A DNA stretch of 64,000 nt, from sequence record ON528728; one strand, 5' to 3'. Below, in pieces: positions 29,821 through 31,100 of the stretch (position 1 is the first letter of the stretch; each line of letters starts with the position of its first letter). The notes below the pieces were generated by a model. It had not been told where the DNA came from. It made no database searches and saw only the letters and a list, made by a program, of their open reading frames with translations. The translations under genes were made by a program, and so were the position numbers. Origin of the DNA: Shigella phage ESh18.

Positions 29821-30681
29821 TTACACCGCCATCTTTCCTTTAATAGGAGGGTGTGATTCATAGTTGTTAAGAACAAAATTATGCGGCTTTGCGAATTGAC
29901 TCAACCAAAATACCTGCGACTCTGTGTCCCATTCATCAAATTCATCTGGAAATTTTAATTGCAATTCGCATAAATCCATAGGTTCACGACGTAAAATTTC
30001 TTTACATTGTTCTACGTGATTCATATAGATATGAGTATTACCGCCAGAAAATATCAAATCTCCCGGAATAAGATTACACATCTTAGCTACAATATGAACT
30101 AACGTAGCATATGATGCAATATTAAATGGAAGACCGAGGAAAACATCTACCGAACGTTGATACCACTGGAGGTCAAGGTATCCGTTACGAACATTAAATT
30201 GATAGAACATATGACAAGGCGGTAATGCCATATATTTAAGTTCAGCTGGATTCCATGCAGAAACAATTTGACGCCTATCATTTGGCAGTTTTTTAATACG
30301 ATCAATAACTTCTATAATTTGGTCTACACCGCCAAAATCACGCCACTGTTTTCCATAAATTGGACCAAGTTCACCACTATGATATCCTAGGTCTTTAGCC
30401 TGGTTTTCATAGTTATCGTCCCAAATAGTTTTACCTTGAATAAGACTACCATGAGTGCGAAGACGTAAATCATTAACATTGGTAGAACCGGAAATAAACC
30501 ATAGAAGCTCAGCAATACATGCATTCCAGGCGAGCTTCTTAGTTGTTACTGCAGGAAAACCTTTAGTTAAATCCCAGCGTAATTTAGTACCGAACAAAGC
30601 AATTGTTCCTGTGCCTGTTCGGTCATCGGTTTCATAACCATTTTCAAAAATGTCTTTAATTAAATCTTGGTATTGTTTCAT
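29821..30681 (-). CDS. td: thymidylate synthase (uninterrupted)
   Basis: 286 aa continuous ORF, N-terminus [17 protein letters not shown] as in T4 TS; no intron. Confidence 0.9.
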
Positions 30682-30684
30682 TTA
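30676..30684. repeat. 9-bp direct repeat TTTCATTTA (copy 1, spans td start codon)
   Basis: Exact 9-mer repeated at 31092-31100. Confidence 0.8.
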
Positions 30685-30725
30685 GTACCTTATATAAATT
30701 ATAATACATTTTATGAAGCTAATAA

Positions 30726-31073
30726 TCAATACGGTTTAGCATCAAATTTTCTCTCAATTTCAGGCGTGAAATATAATTCTTTACCGCGTTTGGAAAAGCG
30801 ACCAATAATATGATAATTATTCTCATCAAACGTAATATTACCAATATCCATAGCTTTCAACCAAATATCGATATTTCTATCCAGCTTTATGTCAAAATTC
30901 CAATACGGAGAACTATTACCGAAAATACTGCAAGCGGATTCAGTGAAACAACTGCTATAAATCTTGTCTTTAGGAACTACTAATTGATAGACACCTTTAA
31001 TAAACTGAGGACCCTGCCACTTTGGCTGTTTCGCGTCTTTTTCTAATAGAATAGGGTAATAATTAAAATTCAT
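30726..31073 (-). CDS. hypothetical protein, 115 aa from ATG (119 aa from GTG), inside the frd-td insertion
   Basis: ORF track; no recognisable motif. Confidence 0.45.
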   Translation of the reverse strand: MNFNYYPILLEKDAKQPKWQGPQFIKGVYQLVVPKDKIYSSCFTESACSIFGNSSPYWNFDIKLDRNIDIWLKAMDIGNITFDENNYHIIGRFSKRGKELYFTPEIERKFDAKPY

Positions 31074-31091
31074 ATTTTCCGCCACGCGTTA

Positions 31092-31100
31092 TTTCATTTA
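31092..31100. repeat. 9-bp direct repeat TTTCATTTA (copy 2, spans frd stop and a relic ATG-AAA-TAA)
   Basis: frd TGA overlaps an ATG followed by AAA TAA, i.e. the first two td codons then a stop. Confidence 0.8.

Follow-up and report, generated by a model that had tools for sequence, protein, structure and literature searches.

The frd-td junction of Shigella phage ESh18: a probable ancestral T-even arrangement and a proposed loss of 416 bp in the T4 lineage

In bacteriophage T4, the stop codon of frd and the start codon of td overlap by 4 nt as ATGA (NC_000866), whereas in Shigella phage ESh18 a further 416 bp, carrying a small open reading frame (designated here ORF A), separates the two genes. 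Was this DNA gained by the ESh18 lineage or lost by that of T4? The original prediction for the locus correctly gave the T4 overlap and opted for gain, with recombination at a short direct repeat as the route. The window analysed is a stretch of 64,000 nucleotides from sequence record ON528728, in which the genes of this region lie on the minus strand in the order frd, ORF A, td, with the following features.

31094-31675, minus strand: frd (dihydrofolate reductase), 193 aa, Pfam DHFR_1 at E=2.8e-19; a C-terminally truncated form that ends ESVYK-stop
31092-31100, minus strand: left copy of TAAATGAAA, made up of the last base of the Tyr codon, the final frd Lys codon, the TGA stop, and AA
31074-31093, minus strand: 20-nt "leader", a vestigial frd tail with a Shine-Dalgarno-like GGCGGA/GGA for ORF A
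30726-31073, minus strand: ORF A (td.1 / RB32ORF229c), 115 aa, 13.6 kDa, pI 8.5
30682-30725, minus strand: ORF A-td spacer, 44 nt, with the td Shine-Dalgarno AAGG/AGGT at ~30687-30691
30691-30721, minus strand: promoter-like segment of the spacer, ~31 nt, with AGCTTCA at 30714-30720, a 10-nt gap, and TATAAT at 30698-30703
30676-30684, minus strand: right copy of TAAATGAAA, made up of three spacer bases and td codons 1-2
29821-30681, minus strand: td (thymidylate synthase), 286 aa, Pfam Thymidylat_synt; intronless and without I-TevI

The 3′ end of frd is ATGAAATAA, which reads ...GTA TAT AAA TGA, and the ATG inside this stop context (AAATGA) is followed by the codons AAA and TAA, as had been described. 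A single ORF occupies the interval, again as predicted; its ATG at 31073 lies 20 bases beyond the end of frd, and an alternative GTG start at 31085 would extend the product from 115 to 119 aa. T4 td contains a group I intron and is split into two pieces around I-TevI, whereas td in the window is uninterrupted. The two copies of TAAATGAAA are 416 bp apart, and alignment bears out the interval that had been delimited: the T4 junction equals that of the window minus exactly the 416 bp between the repeats.

ORF A is a known and common T-even gene that is missing from T4, rather than a newly gained cassette. In the T2H entry AY262132.2 (ABI48932.1) it is named td.1, and in the RB14 RefSeq record it appears as RB32ORF229c (YP_002854567.1), accompanied by the note "flanked by 9 bp repeat"; td.1 of T2H and RB32ORF229c of RB14, RB32, and RB51 are the same gene in the same frd-td slot. 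The protein shares 100% amino acid identity with those of T2 and RB14, and RB14 differs from the window not in the gene but in retaining a long frd tail and a run of five A residues. A literature search under RB32ORF229c, td.1, or the N-terminal peptide of ORF A found no paper.

The 801 bp around ORF A are 100% identical to Shigella phage ESh17, and the full region recurs in 355 of 518 matched phage records, RB18 among them. At a threshold of at least 90% amino acid identity, ORF A is found in 362 phage records, including T2, RB3, RB14, and RB51. By contrast, the empty junction of the T4 type, counted with a junction-specific 40-mer, occurs in 32 records only, around half of which are T4 itself; the others are RB55, RB59, vB_EcoM_112, HY03, SG1, G28, F1, FN, JEP6, FL12, FL18, and G2133. 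ORF A is thus the majority allele in Tequatrovirus (362 versus 32 records). A third allele, ORF C (68 aa), is carried by 137 records from Tequatrovirus and Dhakavirus, its ATG overlapping the frd stop and its TAA overlapping the td ATG. The td intron is present in 205 records and accompanies all three alleles; strict hitchhiking of the empty allele on this mobile intron is rejected, as T6 combines ORF A with the intron, ACG-C40 combines ORF C with the intron, and FL12 has an empty junction and no intron. The original prediction had named as contrary evidence T-even reference genomes with the same ORF and no duplicated junction. The first half of this is borne out: the ORF, absent from T4, is present in T2, T2H, T6, RB3, RB14, RB18, and RB51, and the junctions of RB14, F2, and NHEP36 differ from that of the window.

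Beyond Tequatrovirus, ORF A homologues found by tblastn (28-46% amino acid identity) follow frd with no gene in between in no fewer than six further genera of Tevenvirinae (Jiaodavirus, Mosugukvirus, Kanagawavirus, Gelderlandvirus, Marfavirus, and Winklervirus). Two metagenomic contigs (L022 and L023) carry homologues at 63-66% identity. At most of these loci a second ORF of ~115 aa comes next; this ORF B is a distant paralogue of ORF A, with the common motifs Q..W, G.Y, and GRFxKxGxE..F, and in L023 and VAC36 ORF C is present as well, giving the array frd-A-B-C-td. Judged by this synteny, the ORF A slot after frd would predate the divergence of the Tevenvirinae genera. The ORF A family is small and phage-restricted: in a set of 1.84 billion proteins, clustering at 50% identity gives it 22 clusters, of which 20 measure 95-116 aa and two are weak multi-stretch matches of 321 and 380 aa. 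ORF A matches phrog_1928 over residues 8-115 (E=9.5e-36), a group of ~100-126-aa proteins from T4-like phages that has no assigned function, and membership of it therefore does not explain mechanism.

Some properties of the locus do fit a gain, under which a T4-like ancestor with the ATGA overlap would have received an ORF A cassette by microhomology, with 9-12 bp duplicated and the left ATG AAA TAA remaining as a dead td start. Over 12 bases the two repeat copies agree at 11 (TAAATGAAA[T/C]AA), with a single C-to-T change setting the left copy apart from td codon 3, and the junction is empty in the nearest sister genera. In the ORF A allele of the window, 20 and 44 nt of untranslated sequence lie on either side of the ORF, whereas frd and ORF A are joined by seamless start/stop overlaps at the outgroup loci. 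Similarities are also incongruent: ORF A of the window is 63% identical to that of L023, and L023 ORF A is only 50% identical to that of ZX14, yet the frd and td of L023 are closer to ZX14. This discordance between ORF A and its neighbours could reflect an old transfer. Despite these points, a gain appears decidedly improbable, for reasons that lie in the divergence of ORF A and, above all, in the tail of frd.

Between the window and F2 or NHEP36, ORF A has accumulated 28-31 synonymous and 9-10 non-synonymous differences, with dS of 0.66-0.77 and dN/dS of about 0.05. For the same pairs, dS is 0.43-2.1 and dN/dS 0.18-0.21 in frd, and dS is 1.6-1.9 and dN/dS 0.06-0.08 in td. The low dN/dS of ORF A, together with its dS, indicates a real gene that is long-resident and tightly constrained, more so than frd or td. 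Divergence among ORF A alleles (dS up to 0.77) is comparable to that of the flanks, the flanks beside the insert are not foreign, and F2 and NHEP36 have ORF A with compact junctions, all of which argue against gain. The proposal of a gained cassette is therefore not upheld: ORF A is the majority allele, is syntenic in at least six genera and two metagenomic contigs, and has diverged in step with its surroundings.

A more specific form of gain would make ORF A a homing endonuclease or selfish cassette, as the BASEL records have it, with the repeat as its target-site signature. ORF A is present in some genomes and absent from others at one fixed position within an endonuclease-rich region (T4 mobE, I-TevI, and segG), which accords with this reading, as does the annotation "putative homing endonuclease" in FriedrichMiescher and others. 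Like the seg/mob homing endonuclease genes of T-even phages, ORF A is a small, optional, and polymorphic ORF amid conserved genes of nucleotide metabolism. Unlike them, it has no nuclease motif or fold, it is syntenic across genera under strong purifying selection (dN/dS 0.05), a vertical pattern, and its absence is explained by deletion. No GIY-YIG, HNH, LAGLIDADG, PD-(D/E)XK, EDxHD, or other family match was found in Pfam, NCBIfam, or PADLOC (E up to 0.1-1), in agreement with the lack of a recognisable motif noted at the outset, and a profile of ORF A against PDB sequences returned noise only (E at least 0.04). The confident structure model has no nuclease-like neighbour, and at 115 aa the protein falls below the size of known free-standing T4 endonucleases. 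Terminal inverted repeats were not found at the insert, the best end-proximal pair being a 9-nt AT-only match. A homing or selfish origin is thus exceedingly improbable, and the "homing endonuclease" label that ORF A bears in some records is unsupported. A transposable element with a target-site duplication is likewise rejected, given that the sole ORF is without a transposase or recombinase domain and that the inverted repeats are lacking.

The direction of the event is indicated chiefly by the frd tail. In RB14 and F2, frd encodes 204/205 aa and has the tail ESVYKNEI(PR/AT)GGKYEF-stop, which ends 11 nt inside ORF A; the bases that form the left repeat in the window are here read in frame as the frd tail codons K-N-E-I. 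The frd tail of the outgroup L022, ETVYGEKREF-stop, makes the same overlap, over the MNFN codons of ORF A, and outgroup frd proteins are 197-208 aa long. At the left repeat, the A-run is AAAAA in RB14 and F2 and AAA in the window; this shortening by 2 nt brings TGA into frame and truncates frd to ESVYK-stop. Translation of window positions 31063-31095 shows that they are still open in the RB14 frd-tail reading frame. The left ATG AAA TAA is thus frd tail after a -2 slip and not a duplicated td start, contrary to its interpretation in the original prediction as a vestigial td start and the footprint of a duplication. For the same reason, the direct repeat is rejected as the duplication of a single ancestral site: in RB14 and F2 the left copy consists of frd tail codons with a different A-run length.

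These observations bear directly on gain. The junction bases of RB14 and F2 are an in-frame frd tail whose EF-stop overlies the start of ORF A, precisely as it does in L022, and the window leader is open in the frd frame, whereas insertion into an empty site would bring no frd continuation. Gain also predicts that deep ORF A lineages have no long frd tail, and this prediction fails: the long tail is present in both of them, that of the window and RB14 and that of F2 (dS ~0.7). Its presence in both deep lineages marks the long tail as ancestral and the truncated tail as derived. T4 frd has the derived ESVYK-stop tail, joined straight to td, which identifies T4 as a descendant, by 416-bp loss, of a genome that bore ORF A and the truncated tail.

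Taken together, the comparisons make it quite probable that the window preserves the ancestral, undeleted frd-ORF A-td arrangement of T2/RB-type Tequatrovirus, and that the T4 allele arose from it by 416-bp loss. Four steps would lead from one to the other. Originally, an frd tail (...ESVYKNEI..GGKYEF-stop) would have overlapped the ORF A start, as it still does in RB14 and F2. A 2-nt contraction of the A-run in the window lineage would then have created an in-frame TGA, a 193-aa frd, and 20 nt of dead tail. As a by-product, this contraction would have generated a new TAAATGAAA, identical to the stop/start context of the td start. Finally, recombination or slippage between the two 9-mers would have taken out 416 bp in the T4 lineage, leaving the stop of frd and the start of td joined in ATGA. 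Comparison shows the first three steps, and for the fourth we infer the mechanism. As to the suggestion of microhomology recombination at the 9-mers, the short-homology link between the alleles is plausible, but its direction as a gain is unsupported.

Other junctions provide parallels. In NHEP36, 24 nt are missing between two ATGAA, so that the stop of frd falls on the ATG of ORF A, and the junction of Dhakavirus QL01 (L014) is that of IME281 (L015) with ORF C precisely missing, the break lying at an AATGA repeat. Both the NHEP36 contraction and the QL01/IME281 pair support loss at short repeats. The 9-mer by itself is within chance: TAAATGAAA is a stop/start context of gene boundaries, of which the 64-kb window has 10 copies (3.7 expected), and ten direct repeats of 8-20 nt are present in the 1 kb around the junction. 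The significance of the repeat comes instead from its exact correspondence with the T4 junction. At the td start, (C/T)TAAATGAAACAATA is kept in RB14, F2, and NHEP36, and the RB14 left repeat, with its run of five A residues, is 8 nt rather than 9 nt.

Loss need not have occurred in the T4 lineage itself. Empty or C-only junctions with ESVYK-stop or ETVYK-stop tails are also found in the sister genera Dhakavirus and Gaprivervirus; empty examples are Dhakavirus QL01 and Bp7 and Gaprivervirus VR7, VR25, and VR26, whose flanks are only 64-83% identical to the window. ORF A would still be ancestral under this alternative, but the empty allele would have formed once by loss of A-B-(C), would be common to Dhakavirus and Gaprivervirus, and would have spread by frd/td homologous recombination between co-infecting phages; the truncated 3-A frd tail of window-type genomes would have been taken from such an allele via gene conversion. 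The same TA(T/C)AAATGAAA empty junctions do occur within those divergent flanks, and T4-type junctions sit on diverse frd backgrounds and both td haplogroups. Six of the seven non-T4 empty-junction genomes fetched have the mobile td intron 549 bp away (FL12 is intronless), and this intron promotes co-conversion of its flanks; the intron occurs with the A and C alleles too, however. Weighing further against this alternative, the flanks of T4-type and window-type junctions agree at every base, whereas those of Tequatrovirus C alleles and of Dhakavirus differ, and one deletion event between the 9-mers suffices for T4. An old, shared empty allele is accordingly rather unlikely as the source of the T4 junction, although the wider distribution suggests that the empty allele may have arisen before the T4 lineage did and may pass between genomes through homologous recombination. 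Local haplotype trees of frd and td exon 1 show the A, C, and empty alleles shuffled by recombination across frd backgrounds and two td haplogroups, and are uninformative on polarity. Neither the possible age of the empty allele nor the incongruence of ORF A revives the case for gain, because both derive the empty state from an ancestor that bore ORF A.

The spacer between ORF A and td also varies. In F2 and NHEP36 it is just 13/15 nt long, TTAT(AT)AGGTG(C/T)TAA, and the ~31-nt segment at 30691-30721 that is present in window/RB14-type spacers is absent from both. The promoter-like elements reported in this segment, AGCTTCA and TATAAT, are indeed there, although their spacing is 10 nt and not the 11 originally given. 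AGCTTCA resembles a T4 MotA box, TGCTTxA, and the segment could give td its own putative middle-mode promoter. A sigma-70-type promoter scan of the region found 8 against a shuffle expectation of 5.5 +/- 1.8, which is not above chance. T4-type phages reportedly harbour mobile promoter cassettes (PeSL) in which an early promoter and a stem-loop are repeated at several genome sites. Such a cassette is rejected as the origin of the 31-nt segment, which is single-copy, with no second copy in the window or in any matched phage record, and lies in a spacer without a stable hairpin (z = 0.29). The 44-nt spacer is likewise rejected as a remnant of the ORF C 3′ end: aligned locally to each of six C genes, it scored no better than 2000 shuffles would allow (p = 0.37-0.99).

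What ORF A does can be approached from its protein and its position. The conserved motifs are LLExDxxQxKW ... GRFxKxGxxxxF. An AlphaFold2 model from a 23-sequence alignment is confident (pLDDT 92, pTM 0.84) and comprises several beta strands, a helix at 68-76, and a long C-terminal hairpin bearing GRFxKxG; structure prediction, proposed as a follow-up, has yielded a fold with no solved structural relative. Matches in BFVD are to uncharacterised proteins only, from T4-like phages of Pectobacterium, Serratia, Erwinia, and Aeromonas. A best guess, held with low confidence, is that the product is a small beta-barrel binding protein, possibly OB-like. It is guessed, with equally low confidence, that this putative product comes from the early/middle transcripts that also encode DHFR and that the phage can do without it in laboratory hosts. 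It is the start/stop overlap with frd, found in all outgroups, that weakly suggests a binding protein made together with DHFR. A bolder and doubtful proposal is that ORF A and its paralogue B constitute an uncharacterised family with a fold unlike solved structures, linked in translation to DHFR in most Tevenvirinae, very strongly constrained, and putatively acting as a partner or regulator of the folate/thymidylate (dNTP-synthesis) machinery or as a counter-defence factor. If this were so, the absence of ORF A from T4 would explain why the gene escaped genetic discovery and might provide a basis for phenotypic differences between T4 and T2/T6.

The locus has wider implications for how T-even genomes are read. 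T4 is the reference genome but an atypical one, and differences from it are easily misread as insertions. ORF A is one of many conserved T-even "hypotheticals", and stands out among them for being tightly constrained and coupled to frd. The junction also offers a natural example, in T-even genomes, of how stop/start overlap motifs (ATGA, TAATG, and TAAATGAAA) may act as short homologies for precise excision of a whole gene, and of how an excision site of this kind can arise when an A-run slips by 2 nt.

Deletions between direct repeats have a long history in T4, where the classical rII deletions are of this kind. More recently, T4 escaping CRISPR was found to undergo UvsX-dependent deletions of hundreds of bp between "minihomology" sites of 3-7 nt (Wu et al. 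2021, PMC8262927). The frd-td case differs from these in that it concerns a natural and ancient allele deduced by comparison, in that its repeat is 9 nt rather than 3-7 nt long, and in that no initiating double-strand break is known. In outcome the two are alike: a few hundred bp are lost, the lost segment ends in a short direct repeat, and one copy of that repeat is retained.

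The variation surrounding ORF A, the 115-codon gene lying between frd and td, extends to both of its junctions and to the neighbouring genes. In the window, frd is a truncated form (31074-31100, minus strand, in comparison with the Tequatrovirus genomes RB14 and F2), as is frd of T4. RB14 and F2 carry two extra A residues in the A-run following GTATAT, and their frd possesses 11–12 extra codons (KNEI..GGKYEF*), the last of which overlap the beginning of ORF A. The old frame of this tail remains open across the 20-nt leader that separates the frd stop from the ORF A start codon in the window; this leader is the dead remnant of the long frd tail.

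A further junction form was found in NHEP36, which also carries ORF A, at two sites:

L032 (NHEP36 locus) 1190-1210: left junction flanking ORF A
L032 1548-1564: right junction flanking ORF A

The left junction is 24 nt shorter than that of the window, and therefore the frd stop overlaps the ATG of ORF A; the shortening fits a deletion between a pair of ATGAA sequences. The right spacer measures 15 nt. The frd genes of NHEP36 and the window are very divergent (dS about 2.1), and their ORF A products share 94% amino-acid identity.

Comparison of the spacers upstream of td, which is itself intronless in the window, identified a variable segment:

30691-30721, minus strand: segment of about 31 nt with AGCTTCA-N10-TATAAT
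29821-30681, minus strand: td, intronless

The segment is present in spacers of the window/RB14 type and missing from the compact spacers of F2 and NHEP36. It is single-copy and contains no hairpin, and its motif resembles a MotA box plus −10 element; the segment may constitute a td-specific middle promoter.

In other Tevenvirinae, the frd–td slot holds up to two additional small genes, located after the ORF A homologue:

L023 (metagenomic contig) 3332-3879: additional slot genes
L004, L005 (ZX14), L006, L007, L008: ORF following the ORF A homologue

Gene B (approximately 113–124 aa) is distantly paralogous to ORF A, and ORF C encodes 68 aa (MSNKLKVKDVP...SWM). In 137 records, from Tequatrovirus and Dhakavirus, ORF C is the only gene in the slot; it is mis-annotated as 'flagellar biosynthesis protein' in several records, and its L013 copy is frameshifted. 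ORF A of L023 is nearer that of the window (63% identity) than that of ZX14 (only 50%), but its frd and td are nearer those of ZX14 (61% and 90%) than those of the window (49% and 80%), a mismatch that could reflect either a change in evolutionary rate or an ancient transfer of ORF A.

Database labels for ORF A vary: the BASEL collection designates it 'putative homing endonuclease' (e.g., MZ501066.1, 2728-3075), and JLBYU24 has two 'putative dihydrofolate reductase' features under the match to this region, one of which is apparently ORF A. Neither function is supported by sequence or predicted structure.

The group I intron of td, with its I-TevI gene, occurs in 205 phage records, together with each of the three junction alleles (ORF A, ORF C, and empty). 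Of seven empty-junction genomes other than T4 that were compared, six carry it. The td exon-1 equivalent of the window (30133-30681), at 87%–92% identity, is intermediate between two Tequatrovirus td haplogroups (approximately 83%–86% mutual identity), which suggests a recombinant td.

Upstream of frd lies a further small gene:

31672-31914, minus strand: 80-aa ORF between frd.1 and frd (phrog_4308 / RB14ncORF233c)

The corresponding site in T4 is a 71-nt spacer of unrelated sequence, and thus the two phages differ here by replacement rather than by simple deletion.
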